A stretch of 6,641 bases of DNA from a virus (lineage: Duplodnaviria; Heunggongvirae; Uroviricota; Caudoviricetes): positions 1 through 6,641 of the IMG/VR virus record IMGVR_UViG_2681813261_000025. One strand, given 5' to 3'. Made by a program: the position numbers and the translations under genes. Positions 84 through 6,150 of this stretch are shown in pieces. Position 1 is the first letter of the stretch. Each line of letters starts with the position of its first letter. The notes beneath the pieces are model-generated. The model saw only the letters and a list, made by a program, of their open reading frames with translations, was not told the origin of the DNA and did no database searches.

Positions 84-876
84 ATGGACGATTTATCGGT
101 ATACGCGAGATCATTGGATAAGGCTAAATACTATGTTTACTGTCTCTATGATANNNNNNNNNNNNNNNNNNNNNGATACAGAAGACAAGATGAAAAGACC
201 GTTTTACATAGGAAAAGGCAAATCGACTCGTTGTCTCGATCACATCAAGTATCCCGATGACTCTCCCAAATCCATGCGGATCAAAGAACTTTTGGCTAAT
301 AAAAAATTAGGCATAGATATACTTCGTCATGGTATGGATGAAACCACAGCCAAACTTGTTGAGGCGACATGCATCGACCTTATGGGGGTCGGAGAGCTTA
401 CGAATAAGGTACGAGGAAGTGGTTCCATGATGGGCAGAATATCACTGGACGCCTACCATCACTTAGTGCTGCAAGAGGAAACTGAAATTGCTCCTGAGCA
501 CGCCGGTCTTGCCTTCCTGCTAAACAGCACCTACAAGTCAGGAATGTCCGCTCTGGCATTATATGAAGCTACGCGTGGCGTATGGGCAAAGGTTCCAAGA
601 GACGAGAATCTCAAATATGCCTACGCTACATATGGTGGGCTGATAATGGAAGTTTATCAGATTGAATGCTGGGTCAAAGCCGGTTCTCAGCAGTACTTTA
701 CAAGGGATATAGCTCTTGGCCCCGACACAAAACGTTATGAATTTGTTGGCAGAATAGCCGATGAGCATATTAGAAAACTGTATGTAGGCAAATTAATCAA
801 GAAGCCACCAAGCTACGGTAGCCCTTTTGTGAAGGTTGGGGTGGTTAGGACTGAACATAGTGTTAGCGCGGCATAA
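84..876 (+). CDS. GIY-YIG nuclease-domain protein with an unassigned ~180-aa C-terminal domain; the ORF is broken by the N-run and the frame differs on either side of it
   Basis: The ORF track calls 133..876. Upstream, the ATG at 84 opens a different frame reading MDDLSVYARSLDKAKYYVYCLYD up to the N-run, where YVYCLY looks like the GIY half-motif. After the gap the track frame reads RPFYIGKGKSTRCLDH, matching the YIG-x-x-K...R...H half of a GIY-YIG core. The two halves only join if the true gap length is not 21 nt, so the 5' boundary and exact length are uncertain. A hairpin terminator follows the stop. Confidence 0.5.
154..174. other. Run of 21 N (assembly gap or masked bases) inside the GIY-YIG ORF
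   Basis: Literal n characters at 154..174. The reading frame that carries the protein motifs changes across the run, so the run does not represent the true number of bases. Confidence 0.95.
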
Positions 877-892
877 AGCTGACACTGTAGTT

Positions 893-930
893 ATGCATTG
901 GCGCAATGTACGCGCCAATGCATGATTTTT
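893..930 (+). terminator. Rho-independent terminator between the convergent GIY-YIG gene and the par operon
   Basis: Perfect 12-bp stem ATGCATTGGCGC (893..904) / GCGCCAATGCAT (912..923) with a 7-nt loop, followed by GATTTTT (924..930). It lies 17 nt after the stop at 876 and overlaps the parB stop codon. Confidence 0.6.
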
Positions 931-1288
931 AACCTTTCTTCATCAACTCTCGTTTGATTTCATCGGTACGCATCGTGACATCGGCAGCGGTGATCGCCTC
1001 ATTCAATTTCACGATGTCCTCGATTTCCTGCGGTGACTTCTCTGCCAGATGGAAAATGGCTGCTCGAATCACGTCAGAACGAGTGAACTTCTCGAAGCGA
1101 GGGATGAACTTCATCATCTCCAGCAGTTCGAAGTATTCGTCCTCCAGTGACATTGTGCGGCTTTTAATTTTCTCTTTGCCACGAGTCGGGCGTCCCTGTG
1201 GTCTGACTGGTTGGCGCAAAGGAGTTGTGTTCTTAGCCGGTGCATCAGGCTCTTTGCGCTTTGCTAGGTCACCCATTTTCATGGACAT
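929..1288 (-). CDS. Small partition protein (putative centromere-binding ParB/ParG-like partner of the ParA ATPase)
   Basis: 119-aa ORF directly downstream of parA, with its ATG overlapping the parA stop (TAATG at 1286..1290 on the - strand), implying translational coupling. It has a basic Arg/Lys/Pro-rich N-terminal tail (RQPVRPQGRPTRGKEK) followed by a short helical region, the architecture expected of small type Ib centromere-binding proteins. Assignment is by context and composition, not a specific motif. Confidence 0.55.
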   Translation of the reverse strand: MSMKMGDLAKRKEPDAPAKNTTPLRQPVRPQGRPTRGKEKIKSRTMSLEDEYFELLEMMKFIPRFEKFTRSDVIRAAIFHLAEKSPQEIEDIVKLNEAITAADVTMRTDEIKRELMKKG

Positions 1289-3076: not shown

Positions 3077-3098
3077 GTTCCCCTCATTTGAGGGGAAC
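3077..3098. terminator. Hairpin between the convergent toxin gene and the lysis-like operon (possible bidirectional terminator)
   Basis: 9-bp stem GTTCCCCTC (3077..3085) / GAGGGGAAC (3090..3098) with a 4-nt loop, sitting between the stop at 3073 (+) and the stop at 3106 (-). There is no long T-tract on either side, so terminator strength is uncertain. Confidence 0.4.
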
Positions 3099-3105
3099 TT
3101 CGACA

Positions 3106-3321
3106 TCACCAACCACAAACCCTCTCTCCCATCGTATTGTGAAAAAGGATTTGGCGTTCGGTTTCTTCAGTCATTACATCATTATTGCTGATATAGATAG
3201 GCTCAGCCCCATCGCAGAACAACACGCTGGCTGTTTGTGGTTTAATGACGCACCCACTTATCATACAACTCACGATGAACGGCAGAAGCATCTTTCTGAC
3301 GTATTTTACTGCTCGTCTCAT
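3106..3321 (-). CDS. Putative outer-membrane lipoprotein, o-spanin-like (Rz1-like)
   Basis: 71-aa ORF with a basic n-region (MRRAVKYVRK), a hydrophobic h-region and a lipobox-like ISGC (signal peptidase II type). Its 5' end overlaps, out of frame, the 3' end of the upstream TM protein gene (3242..3321), as in overlapped spanin pairs. It is the last gene of the lysis-like cassette. Confidence 0.45.
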   Translation of the reverse strand: MRRAVKYVRKMLLPFIVSCMISGCVIKPQTASVLFCDGAEPIYISNNDVMTEETERQILFHNTMGERVCGW

Positions 3322-3493
3322 TCACCACTTTCACTGTGTTTTGAAGTCGTTTTCTGTCTTCCTGTTTTGCCTTCTCTTCCATTGCTCGTCGCGCCGCATT
3401 CCCGCCCATCGTGTAAGCGCCGACAAGAACGAAAAGAACGGCAGCCAGCGTAATCAAAGCAACTTTTAGCTTTGTCATCAGGCTGCCTAGCAT
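3242..3493 (-). CDS. Putative inner-membrane i-spanin-like protein (short; N-terminal TMD plus charged helical region)
   Basis: 83-aa ORF with an N-terminal transmembrane segment (LKVALITLAAVLFVLVGAYTM) followed by a highly charged probably helical region (RRAMEEKAKQEDRKRLQ). Its ATG lies 1 nt after the stop of the endolysin-like gene and its 3' end overlaps the lipoprotein ORF. It is shorter than classical Rz proteins, hence the low confidence. Confidence 0.4.
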   Translation of the reverse strand: MLGSLMTKLKVALITLAAVLFVLVGAYTMGGNAARRAMEEKAKQEDRKRLQNTVKVVNETSSKIRQKDASAVHRELYDKWVRH

Positions 3494-3494
3494 A

Positions 3495-4187
3495 TTAGAC
3501 CATCCCTTTCTGGTGTTTTCTTACCTGCGACCAGGCAATGAATCCTGCCACAACAATAGTGGCAATACCGAAGATGATGCGTACTGTATCCCCGCTAGAG
3601 ATATGACCTTGTGCTTTATCCATAGCAGCGGAAACCTGCGGCATAACATCGGCCAGCTGCGCCAGACCAATACCTGCTGTAACAGTTGCGCCTGCGGTTT
3701 CTTTAGTTACAGGAACAGCCTTCACGGTTTTCACCGGCTTAACAACGCCAGCTCGACGCAGACCTTCCTCAATAACTTCTGCCGCATACCAGGTGTTCAG
3801 CGTTTTTAGCGGGCCTCGGCCATTCTCGTGGCGAATGATTGCCTCAACCAAAGGTCGAAGGATGTCGTAATCATGCAGATCGATGATCATGTCTGCGGTT
3901 ACACCAACGGCTTTAGACACCTCATTAATGTAGGCGTCAGTATTGTTTTCATTCGGCGGTGCCCAGCGTTCAATAACTTCACGAATGGTATCGATACTTG
4001 TGCCGTCTTTTGCGCGACGTTTATCGTGGTAGGTAATTAGAGTCACCGCCAGCGCACGAATCCCCCAAACAGGGTCTTTAAACGTGCAAAAGCGCGGTTC
4101 GTCTGGATTCGCAACCAGACCTTGCCACGGTGATCCTTTATCAAGATTACCGGGGTTATTATTACGAATGCCTCTCGGAGTCTTCAT
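3495..4187 (-). CDS. Putative endolysin-like lysis protein of unrecognised catalytic family, with a C-terminal transmembrane anchor
   Basis: The ATG at 4187 is preceded by AGGAG about 7 nt upstream; the ORF track's GTG start at 4214 adds 9 residues. The product begins MKTPRGIRNNNPGNLDKG, has acidic conserved-looking stretches, and ends in a single hydrophobic segment (IIFGIATIVVAGFIAW). Its position between a small membrane protein and a spanin-like pair suggests the muralytic role, but I cannot match a catalytic motif (lysozyme, transglycosylase, amidase, M15, CHAP). Confidence 0.4.
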   Translation of the reverse strand: MKTPRGIRNNNPGNLDKGSPWQGLVANPDEPRFCTFKDPVWGIRALAVTLITYHDKRRAKDGTSIDTIREVIERWAPPNENNTDAYINEVSKAVGVTADMIIDLHDYDILRPLVEAIIRHENGRGPLKTLNTWYAAEVIEEGLRRAGVVKPVKTVKAVPVTKETAGATVTAGIGLAQLADVMPQVSAAMDKAQGHISSGDTVRIIFGIATIVVAGFIAWSQVRKHQKGMV

Positions 4188-4200
4188 CCTTGATCTCCTG

Positions 4201-4524
4201 TTATTGCAGTCCACTTTTTACGCCATACGCGGCTAACCCCAAAAGCAGTGCGGTAATAATGAACGACGTTATTTTAGAAACAATGCCGCCAAAGAACCCA
4301 CTTGAGATGGAATCTAACCGGTTAAGGAGTTTGTCCAGATTGGAGTGTTGAATACTATGTTGCGCCGGGGTCATATCACCAAAGTAGGTTTTCAGCTGAT
4401 CATTGACCTCCTGGCCAATTTCTTCACGTAGCTCTTTACCTAATTTGCCAACAACCTCCCGAGCAACGATCGCGGCAATACGCTCAACTTGCTCTGTTGT
4501 AACGCCCGCCATCTCGTTCGACAT
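4201..4524 (-). CDS. Small tail-anchored membrane protein, holin-like by position (first gene of the lysis-like cassette)
   Basis: The second in-frame ATG at 4524 has an excellent RBS (GGAGGA, 5-nt spacer), so the first ATG at 4536 is unlikely to be used. The product has a ~75-aa hydrophilic N-terminal part and one C-terminal TMD (FFGGIVSKITSFIITALLLGLAAYGV). This topology is atypical for canonical holins, so the functional call is tentative. Confidence 0.4.
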   Translation of the reverse strand: MSNEMAGVTTEQVERIAAIVAREVVGKLGKELREEIGQEVNDQLKTYFGDMTPAQHSIQHSNLDKLLNRLDSISSGFFGGIVSKITSFIITALLLGLAAYGVKSGLQ

Positions 4525-4583
4525 GTTTTCCTCCATGAAAAGTCAAATCGGGATGGCGGATTTATATCATATTTTAACCATTT

Positions 4584-4620
4584 GTAGTAGGTATATACTT
4601 ACCTACTATATATCTTGCAA
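4584..4620 (-). promoter_or_regulatory. Candidate promoter with an embedded perfect palindromic operator upstream of the lysis-like cassette
   Basis: The 121-bp AT-rich intergenic region 4537..4657 contains a perfect inverted repeat TAGTAGGTA (4585..4593), 6-bp spacer TATACT, TACCTACTA (4600..4608). Read on the - strand there is a sigma70-like TTGCAA (-35), a 17-bp spacer and TATATA (-10), with the -10 lying inside the palindrome. A second small dyad GCAGAT-ATA-ATCTGC (4640..4654) sits just after the tfa stop. Confidence 0.4.
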
Positions 4621-4657
4621 ACTAATCGTTGTTAATAATGCAGATATAATCTGCCCC

Positions 4658-5239
4658 TTACTCTGCTGGTATTGTTGGCCAGTCAATATCCGGTGCCGTT
4701 GATGTGTCAATGCGGTTCAATAAAACTCTATACTTCTTCCATGCAGTCAGCAACGATGCTTCTTCCTCCGTTGCAATCTCCAAATCTACAGCATCCTGAA
4801 GTGGCGCAATGTGCTCGCTGGCTACCTGCATCAGACTTTTTTTTGTTTCTTCCGCTTCCCGTACCTGAAACAATTTTTCTGTTTCCGTATCCTTCACCCA
4901 GGCTGTGCCGTCCCACTTCTGATATTCCCCATCCGGTGATAACCAGGTGACATTTTCCGGTAATGGCCCAAGTTCAGAAATAAACAACGCGTCCCCTGAT
5001 TCCACGTCATAGACCGTTTTACCCCTGTGGTCTTCAACGAGACTCCATGATTTATTTTCGCTGTTGAATACGGCCACGAAGCCAGCAGGTACATCCGGTG
5101 GCGCTATATCCGTAGAATAAGCTGGCAGCCCTGTATGAGGTGGAATATATGCATCACCTTCACCAATAAATTCATTGGTTCCGGCCAACAGATTATAAAT
5201 TTTTATGGTCCGTGGTTGTTCACTCATTGTGAAGTCCAT
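4658..5239 (-). CDS. tfa: Tail fiber assembly protein (lambda Tfa-like chaperone)
   Basis: The product ([60 protein letters not shown]...[21 protein letters not shown]) is near-identical over its length to what I recall of phage lambda Tfa and the E. coli prophage TfaE/TfaR proteins. The ATG at 5239 is preceded by AGAGGTGA; the ORF track's start at 5245 is a GTG two codons upstream. Confidence 0.9.
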
Positions 5240-5247
5240 GTTCACCT

Positions 5248-6150
5248 CTACTTAATATCAAAGACAGTATGTTGTTTATTGAGTGTATGGGTGTGAGCAC
5301 CAACAGTGATGCCCCTTCCGTGATTATATGCGCCAGTGGCGATATTGCCTCCGGTATTTTCCGGATTAATCCGGTGTATATGCGAACCAGGGCGAAACCG
5401 GTTATTAGCCTGATGTTGTATCAGTACATCATCAGCCTGATGTTCAGGGTTAATACAGATCTGCCCTGAACGTGAGCAATACGTCCGATAATCGCCGCAT
5501 CCAATATATTTAGTATCCGCATAACGGCAAACAGAATTACCCGGACAGTATGCATATGTGCCAAATACTGCCGACTGGCGGGAGTGTGCGTATTCCCAGT
5601 TAATTGCTTCTGTTTTTTTATTAAAGTTATCCCACGCCTGCTTCATCTGCCGGGCAACGCTTTCAAACGGAACCTGACCACATCCGGCCCCCATTGCAGG
5701 GAATACCACCGTCTTTATTTTCCTGTCTGTCGTTGCGTTTTTATTGTGCTGAAAGATGGCAAGTAAAGCGGCCCAGGTTGCGTTATATACAGAGTCTGTT
5801 CCGTCAATTGTCAGCGGAACACGCATTGTTGGCGCATGTACCAGCCAGGGGTGATGATTATGCCCCGTTTCAATAACAAATGCAGAACCTACAGGCTGCT
5901 CGCCTAGATATTCACGAAGAATATGATTCTGAACGCGGGACTGTAACTGAGTACCGAAGAATGCGGTAATGGCGGCATCAACGCCGCCATCCATCAGGCC
6001 GAAACTATTTGCCGCACTTACCATGCAGTCAAATTCTCTGATTGTTTCAAATGGCTTTCCGACAATATTCACATTATCTGCGTTTGCAAATACCCGCTTA
6101 AATGCTTCAGCCATTTCTGTTACTGGTGCAGAAAGAATGAGCGTAATCAT
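5248..6150 (-). CDS. Macro-domain (ADP-ribose binding/hydrolase-like) protein fused to a Cys/His-rich tail-fibre-repeat-like C-terminal module
   Basis: 300-aa ORF whose ATG overlaps the tail-fibre stop (ATGA at 6147..6150), with GAGG 7 nt upstream. The N-terminal ~185 aa carry macro-domain motifs: [21 protein letters not shown] (compare the canonical xxVNAAN...GGGGVDGAI), [20 protein letters not shown], and [14 protein letters not shown] (compare AFPxISTGxYGxP). The C-terminal ~110 aa have six Cys ([10 protein letters not shown]...[16 protein letters not shown]) and GSHIHRI / GAHTHTL repeats of the same GxHxH type as the adjacent tail fibre. The ORF ends 8 nt before tfa. Confidence 0.8.

Follow-up and report, generated by a model that had tools for sequence, protein, structure and literature searches.

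Several temperate phages silence their prophages through dispersed sites of a repressor that they encode, among them the C1 operators of P1, the stoperators of cluster A mycobacteriophages and the conserved inverted repeats of phiC31; the plasmid-like prophage of Bacillus phage GIL01 lacks a classical repressor of its own, and its lytic promoters are restrained by the host protein LexA. Here we describe a family of palindromic boxes represented by a single copy, upstream of the holin gene, in a 6,641-nucleotide (nt) stretch of DNA from a tailed phage (positions 1 to 6,641 of the IMG/VR record IMGVR_UViG_2681813261_000025), the whole of which was analyzed and is called the window below. The lysis region of the window is 98.9% identical to that of Escherichia phage Cyrano and 83.5% identical to that of Salmonella phage SSU5, and the tail-fibre assembly gene (tfa) of lambda is ~85% identical to it over positions 4677-5239; judged by these identities, the window is part of an SSU5-like phage-plasmid of E. 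coli. Its gap region is matched by 249 plasmid records, the nearest full-length relative being pTB212 (NZ_CP033252). On balance, we read the palindrome as one copy of a dispersed operator for a TetR-family protein, of the type of the SlmA-binding site (SBS), whose binder in E. coli is likely to be SlmA, the nucleoid-occlusion factor of the host, or a TetR protein like it.

The SBS is a 12-bp palindrome, GTGAGTACTCAC, in which G1, T2, A4 and G5 are required, while any purine is tolerated at position 3 (a change of G to A gives a Kd of ~60 nM as against ~50 nM) and any pyrimidine at position 6 (PMC3020112); the 24-mer consensus oligonucleotide, AAGTAAGTGAGCGCTCACTTACGT, adds TAA...TTA flanks (PMC4423959). 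There are ~500 SlmA dimers and 24-52 SBSs per nucleoid (PMC3573117, PMC3020112). An SBS between the -35 and -10 elements makes a lacZ reporter repressible by SlmA, and a multicopy plasmid with tandem SBSs (pUC-2xSBS) causes a lethal, SlmA-dependent division block, because SlmA-SBS complexes on the plasmid inhibit the assembly of Z rings cell-wide (PMC3573117). In V. cholerae, SlmA activates one promoter from an SBS lying 167 bp upstream of the transcription start, probably with the need for a co-activator (PMC5519180).

On the + strand the window palindrome consists of TAGTAGGTA (4585-4593), TATACT (4594-4599) and TACCTACTA (4600-4608), a perfect 9-bp inverted repeat around a 6-nt centre, just as the original prediction had read it. 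It is housed in a 121-nt gap (4537-4657) with the tail-fibre assembly gene on one side and the holin gene on the other, both on the - strand. By itself it is statistically unremarkable: perfect arms of at least 9 bp with loops of up to 12 nt occur at four loci of the window (894, 2636, 3077 and 4585), and 24% of 200 dinucleotide shuffles of the window have at least one such locus (mean 0.36). Because a lone palindrome of this size is not rare, its weight must come from conservation and copy number. A search for further copies, which had been suggested as the mark of a regulon-wide operator, was strongly positive. With up to four mismatches to the 18-mer consensus TARGTAAGTACTTACYTA, SSU5 and pTB212 contain 26 sites each, against 0.2-0.6 in shuffled genomes, and the window contains one; the pattern TAGGTA-N6-TACCTA is found in SSU5 four times without mismatch, 10 times with at most one and 18 times with at most two (0, 0.07 and 0.83 in shuffles). 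The family consensus is an 18-bp dyad, TA(A/G)GTAAGTACTTAC(C/T)TA, of which TAGGTAAGTACTTACCTA at pTB212 63378 is a consensus copy.

These boxes are placed between genes throughout the genome: 24 of the 26 SSU5 boxes (92%) fall in intergenic DNA, even though coding sequence makes up 88% of that genome, and most of the boxes have an orthologue in pTB212. They adjoin every gene class, be it packaging, head, tail, lysis, replication or nucleotide metabolism, and avoid the cargo and minor-strand regions. The presence of boxes ahead of replication, nucleotide-metabolism, packaging, head and tail genes alike speaks against the idea that the palindrome is a switch that times lysis. Beyond the elements of E. 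coli and Salmonella, the box is present in those of Klebsiella (10 boxes in 50 kb of pJN2-26) and in Rhizobium phage B1VFA (39 boxes in 122 kb, 59% G+C). An exact-pattern scan of viral contigs recovered it in contigs without DNA similarity to SSU5, one group of which has a portal protein ~98% identical to that of B1VFA, itself ~50% identical to that of SSU5. Three gene junctions carry a box in both SSU5 and B1VFA, namely those of terminase and portal, of helicase and ParB-like protein, and the one after the capsid gene. Two relatives equally distant as B1VFA are box-less: Pseudomonas phage nickie has no box in 112 kb and Stenotrophomonas phage BUCTxx99 none in 50 kb. Phage nickie has a repeated early-region motif of its own, TAAACGCTTGCAA(A) (e.g. 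at 96400, 101397, 101424, 103624, 105890 and 108261), and at its terminase/portal junction (9427-9460), where SSU5 and B1VFA have the box, an inverted repeat CACTATGG-N14-CCATAGTG follows CTTGCA.

Across 52 sites, positions 1, 2, 17 and 18 (T, A ... T, A), which the window copy has, are 85-94% conserved, and departures from the consensus are almost always one-sided over the nine symmetric pairs (mean ~6.6 of nine pairs; two perfect palindromes among the 52). At the variable pair, positions 3 and 16, covariation in these sites was not significant (Fisher P = 0.07 and 0.21). In B1VFA the two arms of 7-8 bp are near-invariant and the central 2-4 bp are free to vary. Since it is the sequence that is conserved and not the pairing of the stem, the box looks like a pair of half-sites that a dimeric protein recognizes in double-stranded DNA, rather than like a selected hairpin, which agrees with the original suggestion of a site for a dimeric helix-turn-helix protein.

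As to which protein this might be, the family consensus satisfies every requirement of the SlmA 12-mer, and the central 18-mer of the SBS oligonucleotide, TAAGTGAGCGCTCACTTA, differs from the phage consensus at four positions only, those being purine-tolerant ones and the flexible centre. The TAA...TTA flanks of the extended SBS consensus are also found in the phage family. The natural chromosomal sites SBS17 and SBS12 have five and seven mismatches to the phage consensus and are thus further off than the phage sites. Under the strict 12-mer rule applied to both halves, SSU5 has 3 sites, pTB212 4 and B1VFA 14, against 0-0.3 in shuffles; within one mismatch of the rule the counts are 19, 18 and 35, with ~8 expected. 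The boxes and the chromosomal SBSs (PMC3020112, PMC3573117) hence share an 18-bp consensus, except at positions where SlmA is tolerant, and as palindromes scattered in tens of copies they are alike as well. They differ in that the former lie on a phage-plasmid at a density of ~26 per 0.1 Mb, as opposed to 24-52 per 4.6 Mb, that A predominates at their purine position and that many of them, including the one in the window, have one imperfect inner half.

A second line of evidence comes from bacterial chromosomes. We scanned 596 Gb of bacterial genomes for TAAGTAAGNNCTTACTTA and obtained at least 120 loci; as ~140 or more would be expected by chance, the number of chromosomal matches is uninformative and their context alone counts. 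Among the matches listed, the chromosomal loci are single-copy and come from many phyla, and in 65 of 120 a TetR-family gene lies within 250 bp of the exact box. Several of these TetR-linked loci have a promoter with the box as its spacer, TTGACA-17-TACAAT (TTGACA-aa-box-CAAT). The TetR proteins next to the box share the helix-turn-helix segment ...GF.GTTTKEIA.AAGVSEA.VFRHF. Against a profile of such proteins, E. coli SlmA (its sequence checked against PDB 3NXC) scores 72.7 bits (E = 1.7e-24), and its recognition helix reads VSEAALYRHF where the clade has VSEAMVFRHF. The alignment of SlmA to the clade profile over most of its length suggests that SlmA arose inside this box-linked TetR clade and retained its DNA specificity. 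The clade, with one operator, TAAGTAAGnnCTTACTTA, and a helix of the form VSEAxxFRHF, extends across phyla (Pyrinomonadaceae, Blastocatellia, Clostridia, Geobacter and others) and its genes often stand beside those for HlyD-type efflux.

The phage boxes are thus comparable to TetR autoregulatory operators, in that the exact box stands beside TetR genes in Acidobacteriota, Bacillota, Deltaproteobacteria and other phyla, some phage copies share the spacer-filling architecture, and the palindrome overlaps the core promoter of a gene. In contrast to such operators, of which there are one or two with a cognate TetR gene adjacent, the phage genomes have tens of operators and no TetR gene next to the boxes or elsewhere on the element: a profile of 32 box-adjacent TetR proteins found none among the open reading frames of at least 40 codons in SSU5, pTB212, B1VFA, nickie and the window (best E = 0.014). 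Because the elements encode no TetR protein, the host SlmA is the likely binder in E. coli. The host pattern of the box, carried by elements of E. coli, Salmonella and Klebsiella but not by the Pseudomonas and Stenotrophomonas phages, also speaks for SlmA. The regulator encoded elsewhere on the element, which had been proposed at the outset, could not be tied to the dyad in any instance, and SlmA is the best candidate in its stead.

The position of the boxes relative to promoters falls into several registers. In one, a good promoter of the sigma-70 type has its 17-bp spacer taken up by the box, whose last TA opens the -10 element: SSU5 3545 and 55696 are of the form cTTGAAAa-box-TATGAT/TATCAT (both are kept in pTB212, and 3545 also in the Klebsiella element), B1VFA 56339 and 73107 read TTGCAA-17-TACAAT (TTGCAA-c-dyad-CAAT), and B1VFA 60129 reads TTGATA-17-TATTAT. 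Several phage promoters are thus natural counterparts of the lacZ reporter that SlmA represses from an SBS between the -35 and -10 elements (PMC3573117). At least 12 B1VFA boxes begin 2-4 nt past a conserved GCTATAA, with a ribosome-binding site and ATG directly after the box. Boxes of the enterobacterial elements are often preceded by a -10-like hexamer whose final base is also the first of the box, or else have an extended -10 6-7 nt downstream. The information content of the flanks falls to background within ~4 bp of the core, so that there is no second element at a fixed distance from all boxes; a common -10 of that kind was rejected on this ground and on account of the several registers. 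The lysis site is an exception, with the box upstream of the candidate -10. At any of these positions, be it the spacer, the -10 itself or the bases directly past it, a bound protein would obstruct RNA polymerase, and from most of them activation would be impossible, which makes a dedicated late activator or lysis timer, as first envisaged, unlikely. At least 12 B1VFA promoters have the order CTCC, ~15 nt, GCGCTATAA and then the box (e.g. at 486, 4535, 20052, 104746 and 118932); B1VFA_132 has a sigma-70 region 2 domain (E = 4e-7), and these may be a phage-specific promoter class read by the phage's own sigma factor.

Conservation at the lysis site was assessed in 80 loci gathered from IMG/VR by means of holin homologues. 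Of 65 related loci, 52 retain the 18-bp core (4588-4605) ahead of the holin gene, in the form TA(G/A)GTAAGT(A/G)C(A/T)(C/T)ACCTA, and the layout is constant: lineage-specific DNA of at least six unrelated classes, the core, one base, a 17-nt spacer, T(G/A)TG-n-TATAA, a leader with GGAGG, and the ATG. This order of elements is also that of pJN2-26 from Klebsiella. All lineages have T(G/A)TG-n-TATAA unchanged, and in 51 of 52 it lies 17 nt from the dyad despite strong divergence of the spacer sequence. The stem of the dyad, by contrast, is frequently broken in these orthologous copies (e.g. TAGGTAAGTACACACCTA). If TATAAA (4566-4561) is set at -12 to -7, the dyad spans -51 to -34, with its centre at -42.5. 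The original prediction had placed the dyad over the -10 of a - strand promoter, TTGCAA-17-TATATA (4620-4592); the bases were read accurately, but the promoter is not conserved. Its TTGCAA lies in lineage-specific DNA, its TATATA becomes TACATA, TACACA or TGCTTA in close relatives, and a consensus promoter scan did not list the combination. The only conserved promoter-like element near the dyad is TGnTATAAA, 17 nt downstream. As the match to Cyrano ends at window position 4613 and homology with both Cyrano and SSU5 runs out within a few bases of the dyad, the dyad forms the upstream edge of a conserved lysis module. The features of the locus are collected in the following table.

Features of the lysis locus in the window (+/- refer to the strand as presented)
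Feature	Position	Strand	Remark
Promoter of the original prediction: TTGCAA (4620-4615), 17 nt, TATATA (4597-4592)	4592..4620	-	Not conserved
Perfect 9-6-9 palindrome	4585..4608	none	Direct reading of the sequence
Conserved 18-bp dyad core	4588..4605	reads TAGGTAAGTATATACCTA on -	2 mismatches to the family consensus
Inner half-site GTAAGT	4597..4602	-	Fits the SlmA rule of PMC3020112: G1, T2, purine 3, A4, G5, pyrimidine 6
Degenerate inner half-site ATATAC (GTATAT on the opposite strand)	4591..4596	-	Departs from the SlmA rule at positions 4 and 5
Spacer, 17 nt	4570..4586	-	Between the dyad (plus one base, 4587) and TG; length fixed, sequence variable
Extended -10-like element TGATATAAA (TG-n-TATAAA)	4561..4569	-	Conserved; candidate lysis-cassette promoter
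Leader TCCGCCATCCCGATTTGACTTTTCATGGAGGAAAAC, Shine-Dalgarno GGAGG at 4529-4533	4525..4560	-	Conserved among E. coli elements, SSU5 and the Klebsiella relative
Holin gene	4201..4536	-	Longest open reading frame, from ATG 4536; annotated start in relatives is ATG 4524 (324 nt)
Endolysin gene	3495-4214	-	Lysis cassette
Rz-like spanin gene	3242-3493	-	Lysis cassette
Tail-fibre assembly gene, lambda-like	4658..5245	-	Pfam Caudo_TAP, E = 1.7e-44

A different account of the box would make it the operator of a dimeric regulator encoded by the phages themselves, a global repressor or silencer of the plasmid-prophage, with the likeness to the SBS being coincidence or mimicry. That enterobacterial and Rhizobium phages have in common both the box and several of its positions (terminase/portal, helicase/ParB-like and post-capsid) is most simply explained by a phage-borne binder, and the same account is favored by the repressor-like overlap of boxes with promoters, by their occurrence in ParA-carrying elements and absence from the ParA-less nickie, by small winged-helix proteins encoded at conserved positions (SSU5_130, B1VFA_084 and nickie gp154) and by a box variant in the divergent control region of an XRE-type repressor gene in pTB212 and Cyrano. 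In their genomic layout, too, with tens of short copies spread between early as well as late genes, the boxes are like the repressor sites of the temperate phages P1, phiC31 and the cluster A mycobacteriophages; however, the C1 operators of P1 and the stoperators are asymmetric, the stoperators also oriented, and bound by a phage repressor, whereas the box is symmetric, and no phage DNA-binding protein co-occurs with it among the SSU5-like, B1VFA and nickie candidates compared. SSU5 and B1VFA have in common structural, replication, ParB-like and ABC-ATPase proteins; from the shared set, nickie lacks tail proteins, ParA, a prohibitin-like protein and an HD-domain protein. Both the XRE repressor (CYRAN_45), missing from box-bearing genomes including SSU5, and the FljA-like protein (PF03614; SSU5_121), missing from the box-bearing B1VFA, fail as candidate binders by their distribution. 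So do the winged-helix proteins, which resemble the DNA-binding domain of LexA weakly (E = 0.14), whose homologue is present in the box-less nickie and whose putative recognition helices in SSU5 and B1VFA are no more alike than either is to that of nickie. The ParB-like proteins SSU5_125/126 are conserved, yet present in box-less phages; the similarity of B1VFA_030 to the CYRAN_37 family is marginal and limited to the N-terminus; the sigma-70-like B1VFA_132 has no enterobacterial counterpart; and no box lies near parA, whose ParG-like ribbon-helix-helix neighbor (929-1288) was also considered. Given, in addition, that the exact box is demonstrably an operator associated with TetR genes in many phyla while these phages have no TetR gene, we regard a phage-encoded binder as possible but rather unlikely.

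Three further accounts start from the lysis site itself. Activators of the class II type, such as CRP/FNR and Mu C/Mor, bind with their dyad centred near -41.5, and the lysis dyad, centred near -42.5 at a promoter without a -35-like hexamer and held at a fixed 17 nt from TGnTATAAA as the spacer sequence drifts, would fit such a geometry; SlmA of V. cholerae can, moreover, activate a promoter, though there the SBS is far upstream of the start and a co-activator is probably needed (PMC5519180). Activation nonetheless appears improbable, as the other boxes lie in spacers, over the -10 or just past it, where an activator would be unworkable, as they precede early and late genes alike and as no activator gene was identified. 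Still less probable is a hairpin acting as RNA or single-stranded DNA, be it as terminator of the tail-fibre operon, as a processing or stabilizing element or as target of a translational repressor. The palindrome does follow a stop codon and precede the ribosome-binding site of the next gene, its sense-strand (-) fold has -10.8 kcal/mol (z = -2.3; the + strand, -14.3 kcal/mol), many boxes lie 0-20 nt ahead of a Shine-Dalgarno sequence or ATG, and the element encodes a relative of FljA, a protein that binds mRNA. Yet only three of the nine stem pairs are G-C, the stem is followed on the sense strand by CAAATGG with no T-run, and a terminator scan did not list it, so that an intrinsic terminator was rejected. 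A structured RNA element was likewise rejected: pairing is lost in orthologues and paralogues with one-sided departures, essentially no compensatory changes and no sense-strand G-U bias, there is no Rfam match at the dyad (the nearest, IS009, lies within tfa), and conservation falls on the stem sequence, with a variable loop, contrary to the usual pattern where proteins recognize RNA. In B1VFA, which lacks FljA, the start of the box 2-4 nt after the -10-like GCTATAA means that transcripts would miss its left arm. The boxes might, as a last possibility, be linkers without regulatory role, at which related phages exchange modules by crossing over, in the manner of the T4-type promoter-stem-loop cassettes, as lysis-site homology between lineages starts exactly at the dyad, below at least six unrelated upstream classes, and as several genes end within a box. 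This, too, we hold for very improbable: of 19 intergenic ends of alignment between SSU5 and pTB212, two fall within 40 bp of a box, where 2.3 are expected (P = 0.69), and the match to a protein-binding consensus would be left unexplained.

Binding by host SlmA, which we prefer over these alternatives, has several observations weighing against it. Rhizobium phage B1VFA carries the same box, and the alpha-proteobacteria are not known to have SlmA, as is likewise the case for Pseudomonas and the Xanthomonadales. No TetR gene stands beside the few alpha-proteobacterial chromosomal matches among those listed. In the host of B1VFA the binder of the box would have to be another TetR protein or one encoded by the phage, and this keeps a phage-encoded regulator alive as the main rival, because such a binder, if phage-encoded, could have a counterpart in E. 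coli. In the enterobacterial genomes, just 3-4 sites each pass the strict 12-mer rule in both halves, and the window copy, like most copies upstream of holin genes, retains only one intact inner half-site, for which reason it may be a weak SlmA site. The candidate -10, TATAAA, is without the usual final T. The lysis-site box further has the upstream-of-promoter geometry in which an SBS left the expression of a reporter unchanged (PMC3573117). Lastly, chromosomal SBSs are reported to lie outside promoters, with 2 of 24 intergenic (PMC3020112), whereas the phage boxes are 92% intergenic and promoter-linked. The lysis-site copy may, then, either block read-through or merely add to the total of sites.

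From these sequence patterns we infer a scheme in which SlmA would act on the phage according to its dosage. At low copy number, SlmA would damp the phage promoters that overlap boxes and would help silence the lysis cassette; at the candidate lysis promoter, SlmA in excess would hinder the binding of RNA polymerase at its site from -51 to -34 or block read-through from the tail-fibre genes. The promoters would in effect sense the ratio of SlmA to phage DNA. As Cyrano is present at ~5.5 copies per cell (PMC9928086), ~140 phage sites would be in competition for the ~500 SlmA dimers; with amplification of the phage DNA the sites would come to outnumber SlmA, and the promoters would be released by titration. 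The many SlmA-SBS complexes on the amplified DNA could also block host division, as happens with pUC-2xSBS. Such control of the lytic promoters of a plasmid-like prophage by a host DNA-binding protein would resemble the case of GIL01, with the differences that the protein is LexA there and of the TetR type, or SlmA, here, that the sites of GIL01 are few and lie at two promoter regions, as opposed to ~25 genome-wide, and that GIL01 employs small phage co-factors. A bolder proposal, which we offer as tentative, is that the SSU5-like lineage has studded its promoters with ~25 SlmA sites, with no regulator of its own, as a copy-number-dependent silencer; that the replicating DNA makes of SlmA a cell-wide inhibitor of FtsZ, or else titrates it; and that the Rhizobium relatives use a host TetR protein of like specificity. 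If true, a phage would have a protein-free means of sensing its own copy number and of halting host division.

Several other observations concern the lysis locus and its surroundings. The holin gene has two in-frame ATGs, at 4536 (MEENMSNE...) and 4524 (MSNE...), and the Shine-Dalgarno GGAGG serves only the second; the first could reflect a dual-start (holin/antiholin) arrangement or be a chance ATG in the leader. Upstream of the dyad there is a mosaic junction with the lambda-like tfa (4613-5245 region), at which other lineages have unrelated genes (cor, other fibre tips). An Rfam match to IS009 (RF02111) at 4698-4896 on the - strand, with 193.9 bits against a gathering score of 117, lies entirely within tfa; it probably reflects a candidate 'sRNA' family built from prophage tfa sequence, not an RNA gene in its own right. 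The tfa gene is preceded by a 300-amino-acid macro-domain protein (5248-6150; Pfam Macro, E = 5e-19) fused in frame context with tail-fibre genes. Among the other neighbors are ParA with a small partner and a toxin-antitoxin pair of the TacA/TacT type. ParA (1288-1956, - strand) is followed by a 119-amino-acid protein (929-1288) with a disordered basic N-terminus and, judged by eye, a ribbon-helix-helix-like C-terminus, which would be a ParG-type partner of a type Ib partition system; the annotation of its Cyrano homologue as 'RelE/ParE putative toxin' is probably a mis-annotation, and B1VFA_069, beside the ParA of B1VFA, appears to be of the same kind. Between the convergent genes at 133-876 (+) and 929-1288 (-), a palindrome with 12-bp arms (893-929; ATGCATTGGCGC-aatgtac-GCGCCAATGCAT, then GATTTTT) looks like an intrinsic terminator, and a second terminator-like hairpin (3077-3098) lies between the tacT and spanin genes. 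The reading frame at 133-876 is interrupted by 21 N (155-175), and its product has a LEM-3-like GIY-YIG nuclease domain (E = 5e-7).

Elsewhere on these elements, a minor-strand operon encodes a close homologue of FljA, the phase-1 flagellin repressor (PF03614, E down to 1.5e-95). The homologue occurs in the E. coli, Salmonella and Klebsiella members of the SSU5-like group (SSU5_121 at 46897-47343, pTB212 at 21301-21828) and is absent from B1VFA; the element may repress host flagellin. Cyrano and pTB212 have a module of an integrase and an XRE-type repressor, with the box variant GGTAAGTGCTTACC in its divergent control region (Cyrano 11576-11826, between CYRAN_45 and CYRAN_46; pTB212 15678). 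SSU5, described as virulent, has no such module and keeps all its boxes.

While SBSs and TetR operators were already known, their presence in tens on a phage genome without the cognate regulator is the new part: our literature search found no description of a phage genome with tens of SBS or TetR operators lacking a cognate regulator, no report, for a phage or phage-plasmid, of sites that SlmA binds in vitro or in vivo or that activate SlmA against FtsZ, and no match to the box sequence itself. The SlmA sites known so far are chromosomal landmarks of nucleoid occlusion, to which one promoter role in V. cholerae has been added. If the boxes do bind SlmA, widespread phage-plasmids, many of them with resistance genes, would be using a host cell-division factor for the control of their genes, and DNA copy number, promoter silencing and host division would be linked without a phage-encoded regulator. 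This would help explain how the lytic promoters, including that of the lysis cassette, are kept quiet on a 100-kb plasmid prophage, and it would bear on the absence of the box from relatives in hosts that lack the factor. It would also place SlmA within a broad clade of TetR proteins that share one operator.

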